64,000 bases of DNA from Raillietiella orientalis (taxonomy: Eukaryota), in the NCBI GenBank assembly GCA_036172245.1, contig JAYWIR010000012.1, forward strand, positions 1,798,001-1,862,000, given 5' to 3'. The translations under genes and the position numbers were made by a program. Shown one piece after another: positions 34,657 through 53,300 of this stretch (position 1 is its first letter; every line of letters begins with the position of its first letter). The notes beneath the pieces are model-generated. The model saw only the letters and a list, made by a program, of their open reading frames with translations, ran no database searches and was not told the origin of the DNA.

Positions 34657-36078
34657 TGACAGCCACCCTCGACCACGGTGCGGAAACGCGCGCATGCATC
34701 GAACGCAGGGCCGTACGCATTTCGAACAGCGGCCCCCGACAATGCCCTTACCACTGCGATTCCCATTGTTGCCCTTGCTCACCCTGCTCTTGGCTGCCTT
34801 CTGCTTTCGCTTTCGGATGCTTCCCGCCGCGTCGCTTCCACAGGAGAACCCTCCCCTCCCCCTTCCCTTCGGAGAGAGGTACGGGCGAGGGGAGGAGGCA
34901 CCGTCCTCGCTAGCAAAGCTCGCGCTCGCCAACGCTTCTCTCCGCCGCCCGCCTGCCACGCCTAGGAGAAATACGCAGCTCCAGCTCGAGGAGAAGGGCG
35001 GAGGTTGGCGCTCTCGGGATGGAAGGTGGGTGCAGCGGATGGCCGTGTACCCACCCTCCATCTTCGCCCCCCACCCTATCCCAATCGTTCCTTCCTGAAC
35101 CACTCTCCATTCGCGCCCTAGCTGACGTCATTCTTCTCCCACTAAGCGACCCCATCTTCCCCATACAAACCTCATCCTTCCCCCCTACACCACCCCAGCT
35201 CACTCCTTAGAACTTTCAACCTTCCTCCCTTCATGATCCCAACTTTCTTCCCAGCGACCTCATCTTTCCGTAAAACCCCATCTTCATCTGAATCTTCCTT
35301 CCGGAAACCACCTCAGCTTCACATTGCGCTCAGCCTTTATCTTCTCTCCCTTTACACCTGCATTCCCCCATCTCCCTCCCCTGCCTTCTCTTCTCTTTTC
35401 TTCCTGCTAGGAAAGGTCGCAAGGATAAGCTCGCCAGTACGCGCGCGCGGCATTTTACTCTCTCCCTCCTCCTTCAGACGAGCTGTGGCAACGGGAGGGT
35501 CCGTTGCTACAGCCCACCCGAAGGACCAACTCTTCTTTCTATAATGAGTGGTTGCCGTGCTACCAAAAAAACACCAGAAGAAAGAAACCGAAAGGAAAGA
35601 AAGGCGGCGACCACCGAAAATTCGTAGTTGGCGAGAGCTGGTTGTTGGCTCCAGCACCCTGCAAATTCCACCATCCCGGGAAGCCCGGCGCGCCTCCCGC
35701 AACGCCACACTGCTGCTCGTCACCCCTAGTTGCGTTTCCCTAGTTGTTGTTTGTTCGTTTTCGCTCGGGTTCCCCTCGGTTTCCGACTCCCTTCCTCCTC
35801 ACTGCCCCCTCCTCACCTCCCCCGCGTGTGCGCGAGCTCACGCTCCCACCAGACCTCCTTTCACGCCCTCCTCTGCGACTCCCTCCCCACCCGCCAGCAA
35901 GCCTCGGCGTACAAGCAGATGATAAAGCAGCAACAGCAGCAGCAGCAGCGCCCTGGACACGCCGTCGTCGTCGCACCCCCTTCTCCCGGGCAGGACGCTG
36001 CCCCTGTCGCGTCTGCCTAAGCGCGACAGGCATGCGCGGCAGCACCAGCAGCAGCAGCCACGCCCGCCCCCCCAGACC
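34657..36078. promoter_or_regulatory. putative bidirectional promoter / 5' UTR region
   Basis: ~1.4 kb between two divergent start codons; CpG-rich, with pyrimidine tracts and a (CAG)n run at ~35927-35949. Inferred from gene arrangement only. Confidence 0.45.
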
Positions 36079-36963
36079 ATGGTCCATGACGCTATCTCGG
36101 AGGAGAAGGCCCTGGAGAAGAGGGGCTACGTGCTGGGGGAGAAACTGGGCAAGGGCTCATTCGCCGTGGTCCGGATGGCCAAGTACATGAACGAGGGCAA
36201 GGAACTGACGCTGGCGTGCAAGGTCATCGAGAAGAGCAAGGCTCCCAGGAAGTTCTTCGAGAAGTTCTATCCCCGGGAGCTGAACATAATCGCCCAGATC
36301 AGCCACGCCAACGTCATCTGCCACCACAGCGTGCTGGAGCGCGGCGACAAGATCTTCATCTTCATGAGGTACGCTGAGAACGGGGACCTGCTGGACTACA
36401 TCAAGACGTACGGCCATGTGACCGAGAACCACGCCCGAATGTGGTTCCGGCAGACGCACGCGGGCCTGCACTACCTCCACTCGATGAACATCGCCCACCG
36501 CGACCTCAAGTGCGAAAACCTCCTGCTGACCAAGAGCTACAACATAAAGCTGGCCGATTTCGGCTTCGCTCGCAGCTGCGTGGACGCGTCTGGCAAGAGG
36601 CTCCTTAGCGACACCTTTTGCGGGTCCGCGGCCTACGCAGCTCCCGAGGTCATCCGCGGCACGCCCTACAACCCCATGATGGCTGACGTCTGGTCCCTCG
36701 GCGTCATCCTCTTCGTCATGATCAACGCCGGCATGCCATTCAGTGACTCCAATCTCAAGAAGCTGCTCAAGGACCAGCTGAGCAGCAACTGGTCCCACCG
36801 GAAGTGCGTGGAGGAGGTCATGTCGCAGCCACTGAAGGACCTCGTGAACCGCATGCTGGAGCCCGACGTCACCCGCCGGATGACCGTGGAGAGGGTTCTC
36901 AACCACGAGTGGGTCAGGAACGAGCGCAAGACGAGCGACAAGAGCATCGCCTACCGGACGTGA
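36079..36963 (+). CDS. TSSK: testis-specific serine/threonine kinase family protein, intronless, 294 aa
   Basis: accATGG start; complete kinase domain with GKGSFAVV, ACK, HRDLKCENLLL (KCEN is typical of TSSKs), DFGFAR, LSDTFCGSAAYAAPEV, DVWSLGVILF. Paralog number not assigned. Confidence 0.95.
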   Translation: MVHDAISEEKALEKRGYVLGEKLGKGSFAVVRMAKYMNEGKELTLACKVIEKSKAPRKFFEKFYPRELNIIAQISHANVICHHSVLERGDKIFIFMRYAENGDLLDYIKTYGHVTENHARMWFRQTHAGLHYLHSMNIAHRDLKCENLLLTKSYNIKLADFGFARSCVDASGKRLLSDTFCGSAAYAAPEVIRGTPYNPMMADVWSLGVILFVMINAGMPFSDSNLKKLLKDQLSSNWSHRKCVEEVMSQPLKDLVNRMLEPDVTRRMTVERVLNHEWVRNERKTSDKSIAYRT

Positions 36964-40740: not shown

Positions 40741-43700
40741 GAATCAGGGGAGCGATTCGCCGTGGCGATTCCCTGGTGGGAAGGCCGTCGAGCTTTGGAA
40801 GGAATCGCGCAGAAGATTCGTTGCGCTGTCTCTTGGGAGGGCGCGTGCCCAGTCGCTGCCATCATCTCCGGAGTCCCGAGAGGTAGATCAGCAGGTGGGG
40901 ATGGGTATCCTTCTTACCTCAACGGCCGCTGAGATGGGATGCCGCTCCCCTCGCAGCGTGATGCCTGGAGACGCCAGTGCCAAACGAGGATCGCGCTGTG
41001 CTGCGTACGGAGGGGGAGAGCAGAATCGAGGGAGGGACGCGCAAGCGGTCGGGTGCCACACAACCAGTAGGTGGCTCTATTCGCGTGGCTTAATGTTTCG
41101 GTGTCCGGATGGCTGTCCACCTTCGCTGCAGAGGCTTCGAAGCATTCCTCTCCACGAGCGGTGGTCCATCAGGGAACCCAGGGTCGTCCTGTCCACTCTG
41201 CGGACGTTTCCTTGACAGCAAGGCGCAGCCTCCTTTGCGGTCTCCCTCACTTTCGACGGCTCGGCTAGGGCACAAGAACAATCTTACAGGAGCGAAACGA
41301 AACTTGCTTTCCGCGATGACCAGGGTCTCCCTCTGCCAGAGCGGTCCACGGTCCAATGAAAAACGCTCTCCTTCAAGTGAGCGGAAAAGGAGATCGGCAG
41401 CTTTCGTGAGCTCTCCCCACGTCCGTCATTCTGGGATCAACTCTTCCGTCGAAGGATCTTAAGCAAAACCTACTGGCTTCCCCACGGGAACCCTGCGGCA
41501 GCCTAACTTGGCTCCAACCTTTCATCCCATTCCATCCTGGAGCCGAACACGCAGGAGCCACGGCGACGTGAGGAAGGAGAGGTACCGATCCTCCTGGAGG
41601 GAGTGACCCGAGCCCTCCTTCGCTCCCACAACGTTCATGCGAGTCCAGTGGGGTCTTCGACCTGCGAACCGATGGCACATCCCAGGCGTCTGCAGGTACC
41701 CCCCGACGCCGCCGTGAACTGCACACGCGCGCGCACGGGTGGGCGTTTGCGCAAATTTCGTTCGTCTCTTTCCGGAAAAGCGGGAAGCGCGACCGTCTAG
41801 ATTTAAGCACTTCGATTTCGGCCCTACAGCTCCTTCTTTCAACCTCGCCTCCCGAGATCTCCCTTTTTACACGCTCGCTCCCTTTTTACAATCATCGCGC
41901 GATGTACTTTCTGCGCGGCAACGCTTCACACGAATGGCGCGCGTGAGCACGGCTGCCATATCGTCCTTTGCGCACCCACCGCCCTGAATCTGCGATTCCC
42001 TCGACACGTATGCCAATTCACGAAGTGTGCAGCATTCCTGTGTGTGGAAGCATGTGTTTCTCGGTCGCTTCTTCCACGAAGATGAGCTCTGGACACCCAT
42101 TTCTAACACGCCATTACATGTATTATCATCATATGGGCGAGAGCTGGGTCAAATTTAGATTGAGAATATTATTGAATATGCTTCATTGCATCCAAGACAC
42201 TGCTGACCTAAATAATAAATTCACCAAATGGTAACGTGGAAATGGACAATGACAACTTATTAAGCAGTAATTGAGAATTCTAAACAATAGATGCATTTGA
42301 AAAGAAACTTGATAAATAACTGCCAGGGATGACGTGGATTCAACGGATTTTGCTATCGATATTGTTCCAAAGGTAAAACGCAACGAAAAATCAAATGGGC
42401 AGTAGAAGAAGATAAGAAGAAATTTTTGAAACTGATCCATCAAGTGATCAACTGCGACAAAGGAAGACATCGCATCTTAAGTGGAAAAGTACGCAAAAAT
42501 TAAGTAGGAACGGAGAACTTACGAAACCAATAAATGGATGCAAATGGCACAAGGAAGAACACAAACTGATAGAGGGATTGAAACAAGTGCCGATAAAATG
42601 AAACGGAATTGAGTTCTCTGGACACAGTATGGAGTGAAGTACCAGAGAGAAAGTTCCTGTCTTACGAAATAATTGTAACTTACGTCAACAAGTAGGCACG
42701 TAATTAACTACGTTTTCTGTAGGACGGGTTGTAGACTTGAATGATGGAAAGACAAGAGCATTCTAAGTATAACCTCTCGAAAACTGCGATCGAGTGAGAA
42801 AAGGACCCTTCGGGGATCTAAATACCAGTAAACATACCGTATCAAATCAATTTAATGTCAAATTAGATTCCTTCCCTGGAACACACAGAGTCGAACTTTT
42901 CAAAAAACGAAGTGACTGTTTCCAAACCTGGCTTTCACTATTTAAAGAAGAAATACCGTGTTTGGAATGGCATACCAGTGACCAGAGCTTCATCTTATTT
43001 GAATAAGATGAACCCCATCTTGAAAGGCCAATCAAGTGAAACTAATATATGCACTTAGTTACGTATACATGACCAGTGGCAGGCATTTCTTGGCGATCTA
43101 CGTTTACCCAAGAGTTCGTTCCATGCTAAAGCATTCAGCAGAAGTGAGGATGCTGGATGGAAATTGTTCATACACAGCCACTTTGTGAACTTTGCTCGAC
43201 AGTGGATGCTCCGTTGTGAACTACAGCAAACCAAATGCCGGAAGAAGACAACTACCGTAACAATAAAAAGGTTCCTAAAATACTGTCCATGATTTTCATA
43301 ATATTTAACGTTCGGAATATTAATTTGATGATATTATGCATAGATACAAGTTCTCGCATGAGTCCTCGATTCTTCATTTCATCATATTAATATTGTTTGG
43401 ACTGATTATTGATTTCAGTATTTTTAAGTAGTATGTTCCGTTTGTCTCATGGTTCTATACGTTTTTTGAGTAGCAGCAGAGAACTGACGTAATTAAATTT
43501 CTAAATCAGAAAGACCAGGAACAATTCACCACTTGATTTCATTCTTCATTAAGCGACGAATGCTGTTGCAATCTTGGTGTTTTACACAGCGGACATTATG
43601 TGCAAATGCCCCATGCTTTTGCATTTTCTTCAGTTACTTGGAATCGAAATTTCAAGAAATGTAAAGAATTCACTCTTGTTTAATCCTATGCAATGCTCAG

Positions 43701-44581
43701 GAATCACACTTTCTTGCTCACGCAAAAGTAGGAATAAAATACCCAGATCAAATCAAAATACTTAGGCGAAACACACAATATTTTATTATCATATCAATTC
43801 TGGCTACGGTTTTTTCAGAGAACTCTTTTAACATAAACTTCCTTTTTGAAAAGCACTGACACCACTGGATCGTTTATTTCGCCAAGAAATATTCTCATAT
43901 GACTTTTCAAATTAAAATTAAATTGCAACTTCAAATTTAAGCCAGCTATTAAAGAGTATGCAGCCAGTCAGAACTGCTAAGGAATCTTAAAAATCTTCTC
44001 TAAGAGAACTAAACTCATGTTGCGTTGAGCTGGCACTCAGAGATTTCACAGAAACATGGATACCAGACTACGGATGATGTAGCGTACTCGATGCAAAACA
44101 GATTTCTTTCAAGGATCGTGCAGATTCCAAGAGTTCAACGTCGTTAAGATGGCTATGATTTCGGCACCGTTCTTCTGCTCTTTACCTTCACCGTGATAAG
44201 TATCCAAAGCCCATTGCAAACTCGGAAGGCAATGACAAGTCCGCCTTCTTTCCGTTTACATCCCATCTCATTCCGTTCTCGCAAGCCAACATCGCACCGC
44301 TTGGTTTCTTCCACGCAGTGCTGAAGAAGTACGCGTTCAACACCACGAAGAGAACGCATAGAAATACTGCCATTAACTGAATAATTTTTTTTTTTGTTTT
44401 CACCCCATTCATTACTGCATAGGCGGATCCGTGCAAAGAAAATAATGCTCTACTCGCTAAACATGTGTCACACATAAGTTCATGAAATACACATGCTCTG
44501 CCGTTTTACCTTATCATCTGATTATGTATGTCGGGTTACTGATATGGAATCCAACCAAGCATCTATATAAAATGTAGCAAC

Positions 44582-44587
44582 TTTATT
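44582..44587 (-). terminator. polyadenylation signal after BTB exon C
   Basis: AATAAA on minus strand ~50 nt after the stop at 44638. Confidence 0.55.
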
Positions 44588-44637
44588 AAGAGTATGTGTT
44601 AAGCTGTCAGGTACAAGAAGCATGATCATTACTTCAG

Positions 44638-45284
44638 TCAAATTTCTGAAGTTTCATGTTGGAATTCCGCCATGTTTTTTGATTTCAAATTATCATCTTT
44701 TTCCAAATGTTTGTGATACACTTGAAAACATGGTACAAGGCAAAGGGTTCTCTTGCATTCCCTGCAATAATATTGACTCTTACGACGTACCATACGCCCT
44801 TGTTCATCAAGAGTATTCCAGCAGTAGCTACATGCAAGATGTGGACCATCTCGCTTGGAAGGGCAGTGCTCTGATGATGCTGCTACTCTTTGGCTGTATG
44901 CTACACTGGAAGAATGCTCCACTTCTCTCAACACCAATTCATGTAAAATGGAAGAGGACTCTGATAGGGAAGTTCTGCATTTGTCAACAGGCTCAGAAAA
45001 TGACCTCAGGACACCAGGGACATTAACTCTAGTGGCTTCTGGCAGAGAAAGAGTTCTTTCAGGAAAATAACTTGAATGTTCATGAACTAAGTGCACAACT
45101 GGTTCATCATTGATCTCAGAAGAATGCATGCGCTGAGGGACAGATTTGGCCATCGCACTAGGGTTCAAAGGTGCCAACATCTCATCTATGCTAGCACTTG
45201 ACTGTATGTCCTCCAAGTTCCCACTTCCCACACATGATTGCCGGTGAAGCTTTCTGCTCCGTTTTGCCCTCAGGTTCTGAGAGA
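44638..45284 (-). CDS. BTB gene alternative terminal exon C: piggyBac-type cysteine-rich zinc finger
   Basis: ccttgtctttttccag| phase-1 acceptor and 215 open codons. C-terminal CSYCWNTLDEQGRMVRRKSQYYCRECKRTLCLVPCFQVYH fits the piggyBac transposase C-terminal pattern CxxC...CxxC...LC..PCF..YH. Confidence 0.8.
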
Positions 45285-45332
45285 CTGGAAAAAGACAAGG
45301 CGTCATCATAAGATGGCAGCCTGAGATTGCCT

Positions 45333-45362
45333 GTGTGTGGGTGCACAGGGCAGCTGTCTGCA
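45333..45362 (-). promoter_or_regulatory. candidate splicing selector element for exon C
   Basis: Pre-mRNA CUGCCCUGUGCACCCACACAC is imperfectly complementary to docking GUGUGUGUUGCCAGGGGGCAG (7-bp and 6-bp perfect blocks). The adjacent UGCAGACAG is shared with selector B. Confidence 0.5.
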
Positions 45363-45365
45363 GAG

Positions 45366-45556
45366 CTACTTTCGAGTGTGCCGCACTTCTTCCCGCCGAG
45401 CTCGATACCACAGTGAGCTGGCATTCACGCGATAATACCGGGCGGCTTCCAGCAACCGCATCCGCCCACTTAGAACTGCTTCCTGGGCAAGGCTTAGCCG
45501 CTGCTTGGTTTCTTGCAACTGAGTTAAGCAGTAGTACTGGTGTGAGCGTGCCGAAC
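45366..45556 (-). CDS. BTB gene alternative terminal exon B: pipsqueak-type HTH
   Basis: ctgac...cctag| phase-1 acceptor (nearby alternatives exist); QETKQRLSLAQEAVLSGRMRLLEAARYYRVNASSLWYRARR fits the psq HTH pattern. Confidence 0.8.
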
Positions 45557-45616
45557 CTAGGCAACGCACTGCAGTCAGGCTATGCGCAGCACCCAAACAC
45601 AGAACTGTCTGCATTG

Positions 45617-45631
45617 TGCCAGGGGGCAGGG
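45617..45631 (-). promoter_or_regulatory. candidate splicing selector element for exon B
   Basis: + strand tgccagggggcaggg is the exact reverse complement of 46261-46275. Confidence 0.7.
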
Positions 45632-45765
45632 CAGCGTGCAATAAAAAGAACATGAGAGACTAACTAAACAACAAAATAAATAAAATAAACAGATTTATAT
45701 AGCGCCTTTCTATCACAATATTCAAGGCGCTGGGATATCTGGGCTCTGTTGCCAAACAGGAGACT

Positions 45766-46136
45766 CTATTGTAACAACGTATTCTGAGATGCTAGGGCAT
45801 TACTGGGGACATCACTTCTATGACGAGTACCAGGAAATCGGTTCCGGATAGGTAATCCCATTTTTTTATAGTGATTGTGCAAAGTCATTGTACTAAGCCC
45901 AAATGCCTTGGCTGCAGCCCTGAAGCCAAGCCCCCCTGTACACACAGCTTCTATAGCAAGGCGCAAGGCCTCAGGACTGGGCTTTTGTCGTTTTTTTAAA
46001 TAAATGCTATTGGACAATTGTGTAGAGGGGCTGCAATGCATTTCGCCTTGTGGGGAGATGGTTACAAACGGTTCAAGAGTGGGAAGGTACAAGCTTCTTG
46101 AGGATTGCGAAGTGGTTGGCGTCCAACCCGACAACC
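45766..46136 (-). CDS. BTB gene alternative terminal exon A: pipsqueak-type HTH
   Basis: ctgac...ttttcaccctag| phase-1 acceptor; KKRQKPSPEALRLAIEAVCTGGLGFRAAAKAFGLSTMTLHNHYKK. Confidence 0.85.
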
Positions 46137-46260
46137 CTAGGGTGAAAAGACATCTGTCAGGAGTGCTGCACTTCTACCAACAGATTAGAGCAATAGGAAA
46201 CGGTGCACTGAATAGAGAAACGAAATAAGGGGAAAATGCCGAGGCCTAGTAGGTATCCCA

Positions 46261-46283
46261 CCCTGCCCCCTGGCAACACACAC
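46261..46283 (-). promoter_or_regulatory. candidate docking site in the intron after the last common BTB exon
   Basis: Pre-mRNA GGUGUGUGUUGCCAGGGGGCAGGG ~80-100 nt downstream of the donor at 46360; complementary to elements before exons B and C. Confidence 0.7.
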
Positions 46284-46360
46284 CTCAAAACAAGGTAGTG
46301 CTTATGCATACTCTGTGCTCTGTAACCTCATTGCACACAAAAAGCCAAACAGAGAATTAC

Positions 46361-47302
46361 CTTGTGTAGTTGCTGGTTCATCTGAGGGGCCTGGATCTGA
46401 GGACTGTGTATGAAATGATTCTGAAGTACGATGTTCCTAATAGATAATTACACACATGACGCCAAAATTTAAGCCAACTCACTAATGCTTGGGTTTTAAT
46501 CTCATCCAGATTCTTACTTTCAGATAGAGTGGGACTAGATGGTGAACGTTCAGATGCTTCCTGCTTCACATTGAGAATAGGATAGTTTTCTTCTTGATCT
46601 TTTTAAGATTTAAATTGATTTATAGTACACCTTTTTACCTTCTTCCTGAAGCTTTCTCTTTTTAATAAGTTTACTGGATCCCTCAGTGGACCAAGAGGAA
46701 GGTGCTAAGTCATGCTGATCACTATCTTCTCCACTGTCCAAAAGCTTTTCTGATGGATAAATCTCACAAAGTCCTTTAACTTGCAAGTTACTTGCTGTCT
46801 ATGATTTAATAATAGATACAAATTATTCTACATCGACTAACCTTGAGGATACTTTGTAACTGATCCTGTGACACATTCACTTCACCTTTATACATATATT
46901 CAACAATAACTTTCAAGTGATCATAGCTCACATCTTTTAAAATTACAATGGGATGGCTAGTGGGATTCAACGAAAACAACTCCTAAAAATGAAGACTTAT
47001 GTAATAGAAGCAATATAATTAAAAATAATTTTGCATCTGAATAAATTTACCTATTTATTTAAAAAATATTCCATGCAGTATTCTAGCATAACCAAGTTGT
47101 AGCACAAAAAATTTTTAAACTACAACACATTTACCTTGAAGTATGGCGAGCAAGCAGATAGAATGAGCTTGTGAGCTTGCAAATGTTTACCTTCAGCAGC
47201 TAGGGTGACATCAACAAAGGATTCATTTAGAAGCAATTCAGAAAATGTGAAAATGAAATTAGGTTGATGCTGATTCCAGCGTAGGCAATATTGATGTGCC
47301 AT
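46361..47302 (-). CDS. tramtrack-type BTB/POZ transcription factor, common exons 47302-47135, 46982-46842, 46798-46639, 46598-46483, 46436-46361
   Basis: MAHQYCLRWNQHQPNF...FVDVTLAAEGKHLQAHKLILSACSPYFK|ELF...HPIVILKDV...IVEYMYKGEVNVSQDQLQSILK|TASNLQVKGL. GT-AG introns of 152, 43, 40 and 46 nt keep the frame. It ends ...TTQ-G in phase 1 at |gtaatt. HQPNF recalls the BtbVII group, but orthology is not verified. Confidence 0.93.
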
Positions 47303-50300
47303 ATTTTCAATGTGAAGCTTACAATGTTCATAAAATTTTTTTTAAATGAACCTAAAAATGAAACAAATGATTGAGAGAGTTCAACCAACATTGCTTGAAT
47401 GAGAATAATGCATCTCATTAACAATTTTGTTCAATCATCAATCAATGGAAATAGATTCACAAATTTTAATGATAAAAACTTTGTTTAAAAGGAAATGTAG
47501 CTGTTTAAAAGGAAGCATGTATCAAGCACCTTTGTTATATTTTTAGATAGAAGTATTAAAATTTAGATTTAGTCTATAATGGATGAATTCTAGATATAAC
47601 CTATTCTACATCTGTACAAAGAGACTGCAGGTTATAATAACATCCTTTTACAAAACACGTTCTACTGCAATAAACATCAAATTAAAACTGTGCTCTTACA
47701 ATGAAAAAACTAACAATTTTCAATGAAAACTCCCCATCTACTTTCATGATAACGTTCACCTATTCTAATAAATTCCAGCAATTTATAAAGTTGGGAATGC
47801 AAATTTTAGAATCCAATCTTATTTGCAAATACAACTTTAATATGAGAAGAAGAAAAATTACAATAAAAATCACTCAAGTCCATGGAATTTGTCAACTTGA
47901 AATTAGGAAATTTTCAAAAATTCAAAACAAAAATCAACATCTGTCATACACGGTACAAGTACAAGTTCAACCGAATTCTTTGATGGAAGAAACACCATGA
48001 ATGCAAACACTGTTGAATAAAACAATGGTAAAACTGCAATACAACTTCGTATGTTGCTTAATAAGCAGAAAAACACAACACAAACAAAACAGTGCAGATC
48101 AAGGGGTGATATGCAAAATGGAATAATTAATATAAAAACGTTACAACTGATTATATAACAGAGATTGCCAAATTACGAAAAATGCCTTGATCTAACCAAA
48201 CACATGTGCTGAATTTATAACTTTATTGCATTCCATACACAATTTAAAACGAGATTCAAATGCATTCACAAACTAAATGCTGCTTGGTTAACTGACATGA
48301 AAAATAAAGCAACTGAACAATGAAATTATTCCAATACATCAAGTGTTTATTTTTTTTTTTACTATTTTTCGATGGCTGTTTTTGATTTTGCAGCCATTCT
48401 CGACTTTCCAATCTTCCCTGTTACGTGAAAATTATTTGGTTAAGTCCAAAACTCAGTTAGACCTGCTATTATTCATTAGAAAACACACACACATGCAATC
48501 CCACTGCCTCAAAACAAACTTTTAATTTAAGGCCATTTTTAAGTATCCGCATGATTTGTAATACTTACACATGCAAACTTAAATTTATTAATAATAATTC
48601 CTTTTCGATGTTGAAATCATAAACATAAAAATGAACTACTTGTAAGCAGAATGCATGCAACAACTATTTACTGACTCACATTTATGGAATGCATATTAAC
48701 CAGTGCAGAAATTGTCACCTATTAAATACATATTAACCAGTAAATAAGAATAATGGATATCAGAAATCAAAACTGCAACTACGTAACAACTAAAAAATTA
48801 CCACATGGCTTACAATGCACACTGGCATTCAATGCATATCTCATCATAAAACTTGCTTAAATAGACAACTACTATGAATTAAAAGGAATACATACTGAAA
48901 TATAACCTGAGAAAGCAAACACACAGATATTCAGTGAATACCTAGATCAGCTTGTTCATGCACTTTTTATTTGTCAACTATAATGTGCAAAAGCTGTACA
49001 CAATGACAGAGAAAATATTTTACTTTCGTGGCAAAAAAAAACTGGCTTATTTATGGCACTGAGAAAAAAATAAACTTGTTCCTATGAACCAGCAAAGTCA
49101 ATTGAAAATTATTCTTGAAAATTCCCTTTTTTCCTATACAGGAACTTGTCTATGAATTTGCTTCAACTTGCAAGATCCTTATGACAGTTTTAGGACCTTT
49201 ACTTTCCATTAGCAAATCCAAACGTTTTTATCAGTAATTAAAACTCCTGAAACGTGCTGTACTGAGTGAACTTTGAAACAATGTGATTCTTTGACTTATA
49301 AAAATTTTATAAATAGTAAACCCAAAATATAGTATGAATTCTCATGACAAATAAAAAGTGAATTAATAAGCACACCTTTCACACAAATAAATTTACGAAT
49401 AAAATGCTTGAAAATAAAAAAGCTTTTCAAATTCCTAATGCTTGATGTACAATGAAATACTCAAATTTTATTTCATCCAAATCATCAGTAAATTTGCGCC
49501 AAATGGTGGTTTGAAACTCAAATATTCAGAAACACGCGAAAAATAAAAATGCTATTTGGGATATCACGAAATTCCACCTCCAAAATTAATGCAAATCCGA
49601 TCCTATTATGCAAACATTGATAGTTGTATACAAGTATGTAGTTTGGGAAGCAAAGCCTTCTGTGAGCGGTGGAACTGACGGAACAATCCCACAAACTGTT
49701 ACACAACTATCTTACTGTAGAATTGTCTCCTTTTGGAGAAAACCAGCAAACTTGCATTCCCTGTGCCTGTGTAACCAAGGGACTCTTTGCACCTAAGCTT
49801 TCGAAATTCTACGTTTTACATACTCGAATGCATAACAGAAATTTCGATCAATCGAAACATCCACAACAAATTTTGCCAAACAACAGGCGACAGCTGAAAC
49901 GGGCATTTCAGAATACAGCAGCCCAAGAAACTTTTGCTGACAAACAAACCCCTGCATGTTCGCTTTGCCAAACATTAAGACTTTTATTGAATACGCTGTC
50001 AGTACGTTTAAATGGGCAACAAATTTTAACTGATCACGTCATATTGATCGAAACTGCGCCGTAGGGAACGGATCAAAATTACAAATAAAAACATGGCAGA
50101 TAATGAGCAAACCTGTAATCAAACACCCTCAGAAACAAATGGAAGAACAACAGTGAAGATTGCAATTGCCAAATTCAGATGCAGCAATTAATGGCACATA
50201 TAGACACATTTACAAAAGCTTGAGAATGTGGTGGCGTATCGGAAATTACATGGCTTCTTCGGAGTAATGTTAACTGAAACATCCTTTTTGGTAAGAATTC

Positions 50301-53300
50301 CGTGAGTCATGATTCATGAAAACAGAAGCCATAATAATTATATATAGGGTGGTGGAAGAAGTCAAAGTGCCACAGGAACGTGTACGGGGAAAGAGAAAAA
50401 GGAAAATTACGGTTCTTCGAATTCAGCCACTTCCTGCAGAGTGTTTCTTGCTAACGACTGCACAGTGAAAAGGAAAACATTTTGGGACGCGTGAAATAGA
50501 TCGAACAACAACTATTTATTTGCTAATTGAACAAAACTGAAAAGGGAAGCTGGCACTGGAGGGCAAACGTCAACTTCAGGACCTTATCGAAAGAGAGCAG
50601 GTGAAGAAAAACAAGCCAAGTGGTAGCAATAGAAAACTCCCACTACACTAACAAGGAAATAAAGCTGGAAGATGAATATTTTATACTTATAGCAGAATTC
50701 AAAGAAGGAATAACCGGTGAAGGATTTACCTTCCCCAATTCAATAGCAGCGACATCGATAGACAAACCCTTTGGATACATGCAATGGTACACCGTGTAAT
50801 TAAAGCAATATGCTCACTTAAATGAAACTCGAAAAAGTTCAGTATCAAAAGGTGACTGTCAGATCCATAAACATAAACTGCACATCTTCGTTAGTGTTTT
50901 CAAAGGATAAGAAACATCATCACATCATCAGGAAGGAAAGAGTAAACAACCTTAATTAGAAATCATCTGGAATAGAAATTTATTTTGCATCACCTCTTCG
51001 GAGAGGAAATGTGAAATTGATCATCTCTTAGAAATCTAAAAGGCATTCATCTGAATCATCTCTAGAGGTGGGGATCGATGGACAGGACCCACCATTCTGG
51101 TGCTCCTCTTTCAACTCGCAGCACCAGAAACTCCTTTTGTCAAGGAGAAGCTTATAACGAAATCTTTCTTGTGCATATGATCAGCATCCATCCTTTTTTT
51201 CTTTTTTTTCATGGCTTATCTTCAGTGGTCCTTCTGATTCCTGCTTTGTTCACCACTGAAATTGATTCGTGGAAAACACGGCTCACATGACAGAGCTCAC
51301 ATGGCCAGTTCAACCTCTTTTCTGTTAGCAGTTCCTGGGAGAGTTTTAGAGGACTTTATGACTGTTCGTGAGATGAAGCGACAGTCACATGCAGGTTTCA
51401 ATGACACTTTTCTCTGGTAGAAGGTGGTACAAACAGAAACTGTTTTTATGAGGTAGTAGATTCTCCAGGATTAGAGTAGAGATTGGTTTGGGGAAGCTCT
51501 TCTGGTTGAGCTGATGACGATGGAAGCTCTCCTCGCTTCCTGGCATTCAGCTGTCGTGTGGAGACCCGGATTCATGCAATCGCTGTCGCGTGACGTTTCA
51601 CATGACGTAAATGTGCATCACTAACCTAACGTTACTCGGTCGGAGGTGTTGACGCACAGTCTGGCATCGACGTGGCAGCCACGATCTCTCGCGTCTGTCA
51701 ACCTGTTTCCATTACTCCCATTGCTTCTTCAAATTCTTCCCATTACTGTGGAAAGTGTGTCAGTCCGAGAAAGGAAAGGCTGGAAGCATCCATCCCAGAT
51801 CGGCAGGTCTTTCCTGAGATGTGGGAGCTTTCCTCAGCAACAGGCAGCTGCAGGAAGGAAGAGAGGAGGAGGGGAGATACGAAATATTCCTCTGCTCGTG
51901 GGAGAAATGCAGTACCTGTACCTAGAGCGGCTGGTCTGCTCACACGCACTCGCATCCACCCACGCATGCGCATACGTTCTCACAGAAATTGTGGACCAGT
52001 AGAGTCCCTTGAGGGGGTGGAGACATGGGATCTCTCCTCTCCGAGCAGGAGGTAGATCCTGGTCGACTGCAGTGCCTCCCCCCCCCTGTTGTCAAAGAGA
52101 GCAGATCTCTCCTTGACAACAAGGTTTTGTCAATTTTGAACTACTCCCGAGAAGCAGCACCCAGAAGTGGTTCCACGTCTTTCCGGAGAGGCTCGGCGCC
52201 TTCTCCCAGGTGAGTGCTCTATCCCTACCTCTCTCCACGTCACGGGGGGGGGGGAGGAAGCACATCTCTCCCTCTTGCCTCACACACTTGTGCGGCGCCT
52301 GCATCCAGGAAAAGAGGGAGCAGTAAACTGCGTGCTGGACGATGCAGAGGGAGAGAACGCACCTGCACGGGGGTCTCGACAGCTGCGGGCGCCGCCTCCG
52401 ACGGATCCGCGGATTTCTAGGCCCTCTCCCTCACTCTCCGCAAAGTTGCCTTCTTCCTCCTCCTCCATCCTCTCCGGAGGAGGAGGTGCGGAGAGTCGCG
52501 CTGTCCTGCACGCTGCCGCTGTTGGTCCCGCCGAAGGAGGAAGAGAAAGAGGAACGCGCGCGCCTCCACACACACGTCTGCTTCAAGACAGGACCTCCCA
52601 CGGAGAAGAACGCCAGGCACATTCCTCCAGGAGCGCCGCCGGATGACCCTGCCACCGATCGCCTTGAGGAAGACAGCCGAAGGGCGAAGGTTGCAGGCGC
52701 ATCTTCGTGAGAGTGTGCGTGACGGAAGCCGGACGCCGTCCGCTAAAAACAGAAGGAGCCTGACAATCGAAAAGCGCTCGCGAGAAAACATGTTGCCATG
52801 GGGACGGAGGGGAGGGAGAGAAGGGAGAAGCGCAGCCCGCGCTCCCTTTCTCCAGGCGCAGCGGACCACCTGGGCGTTGGGAAGCGCGGAGCGGTGTCCT
52901 CTTTGTCAGAAGAGCCGTTCGGCACCCTGCACGGGGTGACACCCCATCTTCACAAATGAAAGGGAAAGGCAGAGTAGCTCTTTCCCTTTTCTTCTCCTCC
53001 TACTCTTTTCCTTTCTCTTCCTACTATTGCTACTTACCACCGCTCCCACTGCTATTATTTTTTTTTCCCTCGCCCTACTACTACTAATGCTATCACTACT
53101 CGTACTACTGCTACTATTTCCGCTTCTCCTGGTGCTACCCTTCTTCTTCTCCCTTTCATTGCCCCTGTTCCAAAAACTGCAAGGTTCTTCCGTGCCGTAG
53201 GGAGAAACGTTTCTGTAAGACGGGACAGGTGCTTTTTTGCTGCAAATTTCCTTGTCTTTGATCCGTCCGGGAGCGTCCGAGGACTCCTTCCCTTAGGGAT

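Follow-up and report, generated by a model that had tools for sequence, protein, structure and literature searches.

Organization of the BTB gene

The genes lola, mod(mdg4), fruitless and BtbVII each generate a family of transcription factors by combining a single BTB domain with alternative DNA-binding exons. We know of little that accounts for how a DNA-binding exon is chosen in the TTK-group BTB genes. Here we analyze a stretch of 64,000 nucleotides (nt) of the Raillietiella orientalis genome (contig JAYWIR010000012.1, positions 1,798,001 to 1,862,000; henceforth the window), which carries a BtbVII-like, TTK-group BTB gene on its minus strand. An original prediction made from the letters of this DNA held that a docking site in an intron of the gene pairs with competing selectors upstream of two alternative exons and thereby determines which exon is joined to the BTB domain. 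All coordinates are those of the window, and the features of the BTB gene, including its exons and the pairing elements, are on the minus strand. A read-out of the sequence recovered every string named in that prediction on this strand at the position assigned to it.

The gene has one common donor followed by three in-phase alternative DNA-binding end-exons, an organization that had been proposed before and that Pfam matches and our reading of the splice sites bear out. Coding exon 1 (47302-47135, with the ATG at 47302-47300 and the donor GTAAAT) encodes the first half of the BTB domain (Pfam BTB, E=1.2e-11) and exon 2 (46982-46842, splice sites by inspection) the second half (Pfam BTB, E=7.5e-07). 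The BTB exon shows 76-80% identity with insect proteins named BTB-protein-VII, lola-like or tramtrack(ttk)-like. Exon 3 (46798-46631), which is also common, opens with TASNLQVKGL, the residues with which a TTK-type BTB domain canonically ends (alignment A1); by inspection, its donor AAG/GTGTAC is the only one that preserves the frame into the common exon 4 (46563-46483). The latter is an open frame lying between the acceptor AG at 46565-46564 and the donor GTGAGT, and the last common exon, exon 5 (46436-46361), ends in phase 1 at the donor GT 46360-46359 (GTAATT, 46360-46355), all again by inspection. All three downstream acceptors take phase 1, and each opens a frame with its own stop codon. 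Judged from these sequences, an N-terminal TTK-type BTB domain with alternative C-termini of the psq helix-turn-helix (HTH) or transposase-type zinc-finger kind is the make-up of a BtbVII-like TTK-group factor.

The constitutive introns of the gene measure 152, 43, 67 and 46 nt, two of them being very short (46841-46799, 43 nt; 46482-46437, 46 nt). The intron between the common donor and the second of the alternative exons, exon B, spans 804 nt and is exceptional for this gene, because its constitutive introns stay within 43-152 nt.

The three alternative terminal exons

Exon A (46136-45766; acceptor AG 46138-46137, phase 1, stop TAG 45768-45766) encodes a psq HTH domain (Pfam HTH_psq, E=2e-09). 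It is 39% identical to the psq region of isoform P0003 of a beetle (Sitophilus); a word search of exon A against longer proteins returned no scoring match, and a search of metagenome contigs returned none. In a scan for polyadenylation (poly(A)) signals, no canonical AATAAA was found for exon A inside the loop formed by the stem described below. The scan yielded only the variant TATAAA at 45699-45694, which is followed by a U/GU-rich run and lies inside that loop, 5' of the selector arm; we regard it as a candidate, weak poly(A) signal that may serve exon A.

Exon B (45556-45366; acceptor AG 45558-45557, phase 1, stop TAG 45368-45366) encodes a divergent psq HTH domain (Pfam HTH_psq, E=1.4e-06, 28.3 bits with a cut-off of 20.4). 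Its relatives, proteins that contain four psq repeats, are all distant, none exceeding 35% identity. By hand count, pyrimidines make up 11 of the last 20 nt before its acceptor, 13/20 in the case of exon A and 15/20 in that of exon C. The sequence CUGAC at 45577-45573, about 18 nt 5' of the exon B acceptor AG, we take to be a candidate branch point on the consensus as we know it. A second in-frame AG is present at 45570-45569, 12 nt 5' of this acceptor, and probably lies too near the candidate branch point to be used. The 81 nt from the exon B stop to the exon C acceptor contain no poly(A) hexamer in the scan.

Exon C (45284-44638) follows a strong polypyrimidine tract, is entered in phase 1 and encodes a transposase-type, DDE_Tnp_1-like zinc finger (Pfam zf-Tnp_2, E=7.6e-05); its score of 23.6 bits falls slightly below the cut-off of 24. 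An AATAAA is found at 44587-44582, 3' of the exon C stop. Over 53 residues, exon C shows 60% identity to the zinc finger of the beetle isoform P0004. P0003 and P0004, the counterparts of exons A and C respectively, are products of one Sitophilus gene, so that the R. orientalis gene shares with beetles the option of ending in either a psq domain or a zinc finger. The C-terminal finger of exon C (44707-44868) is kept at 54-66% identity in 36 metagenome loci (L001-L036, on arthropod-like contigs) and also occurs in insect proteins. These matches suggest that the zinc finger is a transposase domain domesticated long ago in this gene family.

Two further arrangements of these exons were considered. 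Use of exon B as an in-frame cassette joined to exon C is ruled out by the arithmetic of the phases, and an origin of exons A and B as recent duplicates is ruled out by the lack of any alignment between them. Separately, a 25-nt direct repeat (family D2, 76% identity) has one copy just 5' of the exon A acceptor (46178-46154) and the other at the end of exon B (45393-45369).

A predicted stem between the first variable intron and the region upstream of exon B

The intron that follows exon 5 contains the element TGCCAGGGGGCAGGG at 46275-46261. The exact reverse complement of this element is found at 45631-45617, and at up to two mismatches these are the sole two matches in the window. The docking arm (46275-46258) comprises the G-rich core UGCCAGGGGGCAGGG (46275-46261) and three additional pairs (two G-U and one G-C), and is positioned 85 nt 3' of the common donor. 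The selector arm of exon B (45634-45617), with the core CCCUGCCCCCUGGCA (45631-45617) and the corresponding three pairs, ends 60 nt 5' of the exon B acceptor, which agrees with the perfect 15-nt complement originally placed about 60 nt upstream of it. The stem comprises the 15-nt perfect core, 18 bp by inspection and about 20 pairs in the cofold. The arms have 80% G+C, and the cofold of the 26-nt arms has an energy of -42.8 kcal/mol. Between them they enclose the exon A acceptor and exon A in a loop of 629 nt, and the donor, both arms and exons A, B and C all fall inside 1.8 kb.

To gauge chance pairing, the 224-nt first intron was compared with the 100 nt 5' of each acceptor, taking the best duplex of 30-nt tiles in the real sequence and in 200 shuffles. 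The duplex with the exon B region (-46.8 kcal/mol, against -29.2 +/- 2.9 in the shuffles; z = -6.0) was matched by none of the 200. When successive 40-nt windows of the pre-mRNA further downstream were paired with the docking region, the B selector stood out as an outlier at -51.9, with the runner-up at -38.2. No perfect inverted repeat in the 2.8-kb pre-mRNA is longer than the 15-mer.

In ensemble folding the core pairs with a probability of 0.91 in a context of 1076 nt, 0.61 in 1237 nt and about 1.0 in 804 nt. The stem is present in the centroid of one fold, and in both the minimum-energy structure and the centroid of the whole-intron fold. In the 1076-nt and the 1237-nt context alike, the minimum-energy structure has the docking arm paired to a local competitor at 46249-46238 (local fold, -25.2 kcal/mol). 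The folding and duplex check that had been suggested for the whole system was run in this way: it favoured the stem between the docking arm and the B selector, and gave about zero expected pairs for the docking:C pairing and for the second contact, both taken up next.

The proposed exon C selector and the second contact

The original prediction also assigned the docking site a selector upstream of exon C, and a second docking element near the donor that would assist in both pairings. The string of the exon C selector (45353-45333) is in place, but a selector role for it finds no support. Its best duplex with the first intron (-29.8 kcal/mol, against -28.7 +/- 3.1 in the shuffles) is reached by 69 of the 200 shuffles, and the C region ranks only sixth (-32.5) in the scan of the docking region against downstream windows. 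A docking:C duplex can be drawn with energies from -24.0 to -29.8 kcal/mol; the expected number of base pairs in the ensemble is about zero. Nor does the C region act as a fallback partner: when the B selector is barred from pairing, the docking region folds locally within 46324-46225 and not with the C region. No selector was found for exon A. Competition of a B and a C selector for one docking site is thus not borne out, as only B pairs beyond chance. The looping out of exon A that this competition was to bring about stands as far as the non-random pairing to the region upstream of exon B is concerned, but not for the pairing to the C region.

A similar outcome was seen with the second contact. 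The element UUGUGUGCA near the donor (46340-46332) and its proposed partner UGCAGACAG (45613-45605 and 45362-45354, with no other occurrence in the window) are both there, the latter in its two copies, and by hand 8 of the 9 positions pair as predicted (seven Watson-Crick and one G-U, with one G-G mismatch). However, actual pairing is predicted to be negligible, with duplex energies of -10.5 and -10.0 kcal/mol and about zero expected pairs with either copy. A further 9-mer, GCUGCCCUG, occurs at 45627-45635 and 45346-45354 and at those two sites only in the 64 kb; its copy at 45346-45354 abuts UGCAGACAG. The regions 5' of exons B and C consequently have two 9-mers in common, UGCAGACAG and GCUGCCCUG, in swapped order. 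At least two common 9-mers arise in 93 of 5000 shuffles, which makes the sharing suggestive.

On the modelled folds, the core stem is a genuine, non-random feature, placed as one would expect of a known class of splicing switches. The multi-selector part of the scheme is unsupported. We therefore read the element as a bridge or loop-out stem rather than as docking/selector competition, because it has one selector only.

Orthologous loci

A search of metagenome contigs with the zinc-finger alignment A2 recovered 38 loci, all of them distant (identity in the zinc-finger exon no higher than 66%); searches with the same alignment of the genome contig and viral contig collections gave no match. A psq exon 5' of the zinc-finger exon was present in L024 and L025 only, in sequence that ends short of the common donor. 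In the four compact loci L002, L003, L012 and L035 no psq exon was detected between the BTB and the zinc-finger exons (HTH_psq in 0 of 109 open reading frames (ORFs)).

Introns of some of these loci have strong inverted repeats of their own, which proved to resemble transposons. One is a 437-nt imperfect palindrome in L012 (8028-8445), and copies of a hairpin-forming repeat are found in introns of L025 (1822-1906, 7211-7401 and 8927-9407) and L029 (2839-3030). The differences between the hairpins of L025 and L029 can be ruled out as compensatory changes, because the copies are not orthologous.

Comparison with known systems and a proposed mechanism

The closest parallels to the R. orientalis stem come from Drosophila. 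In Nmnat, a stem around the proximal terminal exon is required for use of the distal acceptor, as established with disruption and compensatory mutants (Raker et al. 2009, PMC2724269; the comparison draws on part of that report). The BTB gene resembles it in having two complementary boxes, here the arms at 46275-46258 and 45634-45617, around the proximal alternative acceptor. Likewise, the stem would loop out a proximal terminal exon, for which TATAAA is here the candidate poly(A) signal, and would bring a distant, probably weaker acceptor near the donor by arms a few hundred nucleotides apart. Unlike the Nmnat stem, which is backed by mutagenesis, the present one is a prediction from sequence and folding. 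Box 2 of Nmnat lies 5' of the poly(A) signal, going by the portion of the report used here (PMC2724269), whereas the downstream arm in the BTB gene lies 3' of the candidate signal. Nmnat furthermore offers two choices, and the BTB gene three downstream ones; these belong to a transcription factor, so that the choice exchanges DNA-binding domains.

A second group of parallels is provided by PGRP-LC, CG42235 and Pip, in which docking/selector pairing operates at 3' variable regions; in PGRP-LC, pairing of a selector with the docking site activates the 3' cassette immediately downstream (Pan et al. 2018, PMC6191721, of which part is drawn on here). These genes share with the R. orientalis gene an intronic docking element beside a common exon, a selector just 5' of an alternative 3' cassette, a proposed role of the pairing in switching on the next acceptor, and an interplay with proximal cleavage and polyadenylation. 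They differ in having, in the sections of that study considered, at least two competing selectors, where here one partner pairs beyond chance, and in masking of the 5' splice site, of which we see no evidence in the BTB gene. As in exon 6 of Dscam1, an element in the intron after a constitutive exon pairs with one 5' of a variable exon; Dscam1, in contrast, has internal mutually exclusive cassettes, dozens of consensus selectors and deep conservation (both points after the same part of PMC6191721).

Among the TTK-group genes themselves, mod(mdg4) and lola likewise join a common 5' part to alternative 3' DNA-binding exons. Whereas mod(mdg4) does so by trans-splicing, the exons here are in cis within 1.1 kb and are accompanied by a strong complement. 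A test of complementary pairing in mod(mdg4) went against it and pointed to redundant protein-binding motifs instead, as reported in PMC13490949. Among the papers listed in our search of the literature (docking/selector pairing with BTB, lola trans-splicing and BtbVII), we found no report of RNA pairing in a BTB-psq gene.

From the modelled pairing we propose, with roughly even confidence, that a single bridging or loop-out stem of the Nmnat/PGRP-LC kind favours exon B over exon A. The placement of the arms fits this reading and supports it: they flank the proximal acceptor and terminal exon, and the 3' arm is near the acceptor with the weakest pyrimidine tract. Formation of the stem in vivo would shut exon A, together with its acceptor and the candidate poly(A) signal, in the 629-nt loop, and the 804 nt that separate the donor from exon B would shrink to about 145 nt, the stem itself not counted. 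Such a distance is within the range of the constitutive introns of the gene, and splicing would therefore shift from exon A to exon B, provided that exon B is expressed. The stem may also favour exon C, which is further 3'. Conversely, exon A would be used whenever the local hairpin retained the docking arm, or whenever the pre-mRNA was cleaved at the putative exon A poly(A) site first. Exon C, which has a canonical poly(A) signal and, judged by its pyrimidine tract, the strongest acceptor, might need no selector at all.

Weighing the bridging stem against rival explanations

Several observations count against a bridging stem. The 15-mer is found in none of the 38 orthologous loci, all of which are at or below 66% identity in the zinc-finger exon. 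Because the relatives of exon B are only distant ones, its status as a predicted exon depends on its splice signals, reading phase and Pfam match. In two of the three contexts (1076 and 1237 nt) the minimum-energy fold favours the local docking-arm hairpin, and this hairpin is transcribed about 600 nt sooner than the selector. Folding of the whole intron is not unusual (z = -1.18, equalled by 3 of 20 shuffles), and the helices that the whole-intron fold suggests between the donor-proximal and acceptor-proximal flanks are not significant, being equalled in 38/300 and 48/300 shuffles. When the whole pre-mRNA is shuffled by dinucleotides, perfect inverted repeats of at least 15 nt appear somewhere in 4 of 300 cases, and five such repeats with arms within 1 kb exist in the actual 64-kb window, where simple arithmetic leads one to expect about 0.06.

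Most of these points would be accommodated if the match between a C-rich stretch and a G-rich element of the intron were a chance or neutral coincidence, with no effect on splicing. The shuffled pre-mRNAs, the further repeats in the window, the lack of complementarity in the flanks of the core and the ordinary folding of the whole intron all speak for such a coincidence, and rare ones would be expected where very many windows are scanned. It nevertheless seems unlikely to us, if worth serious attention. Once the comparison is limited to the two relevant regions, no shuffle does as well; the arms are G+C-rich, pair strongly and sit where a bridge would need them, one 85 nt downstream of the donor and the other 60 nt short of an acceptor with a weak pyrimidine tract. 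The other four long repeats of the window are moreover of a different, extended type, each lying within a longer imperfect repeat of 27-94 nt, whereas the docking/B-selector repeat is sharply bounded. A genuine competition of the Dscam1 or PGRP-LC kind, in which one docking site is alternately met by a strong B and a weak C selector with UUGUGUGCA:UGCAGACAG as a helper contact and the two shared 9-mers as part of the code, would start from the same docking:B pairing. In its favour, the B and C upstream regions alone in the 64 kb have both 9-mers, and the docking:C duplex can at least be drawn. We nonetheless hold this code to be improbable: the docking:C duplex is no better than a good fraction of shuffles and is outranked by other downstream windows, its expected pairs vanish as do those of the second contact, the docking region turns to local pairing when B is blocked, and exon A is without a selector.

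The two arms might instead be functionless remnants of transposon terminal repeats, of a small inverted duplication or of a template switch. Inverted repeats of this sort are common in the window: those at 20408-20537/21418-21544 (36 nt at 94% beside 90 nt at 73%) and 23800-24088/24942-25133 (94 nt at 85%) are long and imperfect, have arms about 0.9-1.1 kb apart and look like mobile-element terminal repeats or inverted duplications. The palindrome of L012 and the repeated hairpin element of L025 and L029 add to the case from the side of the orthologues. We still judge such an origin to be very unlikely, since the docking/B-selector repeat does not extend past its core, the region has no second copy in the 64-kb window, no target-site duplication is seen by eye, and the arms surround a conserved coding exon. 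Least credible of all is a pair of convergent sites for a DNA-binding protein with a CTCF-like core, which would act via chromatin or polymerase pausing. Both arms match what we assume to be the 14-nt degenerate CTCF-type consensus at 11 of 14 positions; however, matches with three mismatches are common in the window (221 observed, about 149 in shuffles), the strongly conserved first triplet of the assumed consensus is missing, and a protein site needs no identity over all 15 positions. Against these alternatives, a single stem bridging from the common donor to exon B is the reading we retain, at the even confidence given above.

Sequence context of the gene

The BTB gene resides in an A+T-rich island within 42000-52000, with 32-45% G+C and an observed/expected CpG ratio of 0.32-0.85; the flanks of the island have 54-64% G+C and CpG ratios of mostly 0.7-1.1. 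The part from the docking site through exon B is higher in G+C than the BTB exons, at up to 59%, and exon B has 8 CpG per 100 nt. Located 5' of the BTB start codon is a 27-nt inverted repeat (48950-48976/49345-49371), its arms 89% complementary and 368 nt apart. An Rfam scan of 44000-48000 gave two matches, both under the gathering scores; a weak match to the C/D-box small nucleolar RNA snoR64 lies at 47735-47831 on the minus strand, again 5' of the BTB start codon, with 27.3 bits against a gathering score of 45. Elsewhere in the window, the plus strand carries an intronless ORF of 345 residues (35926-36960) whose protein kinase domain is complete (Pfam, E=2.4e-64). It shows about 60% identity to testis-specific serine/threonine (TSSK-like) kinases of many pancrustaceans (insects, ostracods and springtails), as would be expected of DNA from an arthropod lineage that the searched databases do not sample.

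Implications for TTK-group BTB genes

Because the donor, the arms and exons A-C together span just 1.8 kb, the gene lends itself easily to a minigene test. Should the improbable docking/selector code after all prove true, RNA pairing would decide whether psq A, psq B or the zinc finger is joined to the BTB domain, and the gene would be the first such case in the lola/mod(mdg4)/BtbVII class. If instead the single bridging stem is borne out, structural control of the Nmnat/PGRP-LC type would reach the TTK-group BTB genes. A stem acting in cis that switches a BTB factor among two psq domains and a zinc finger would then be a simple, mutable handle on DNA-binding specificity.

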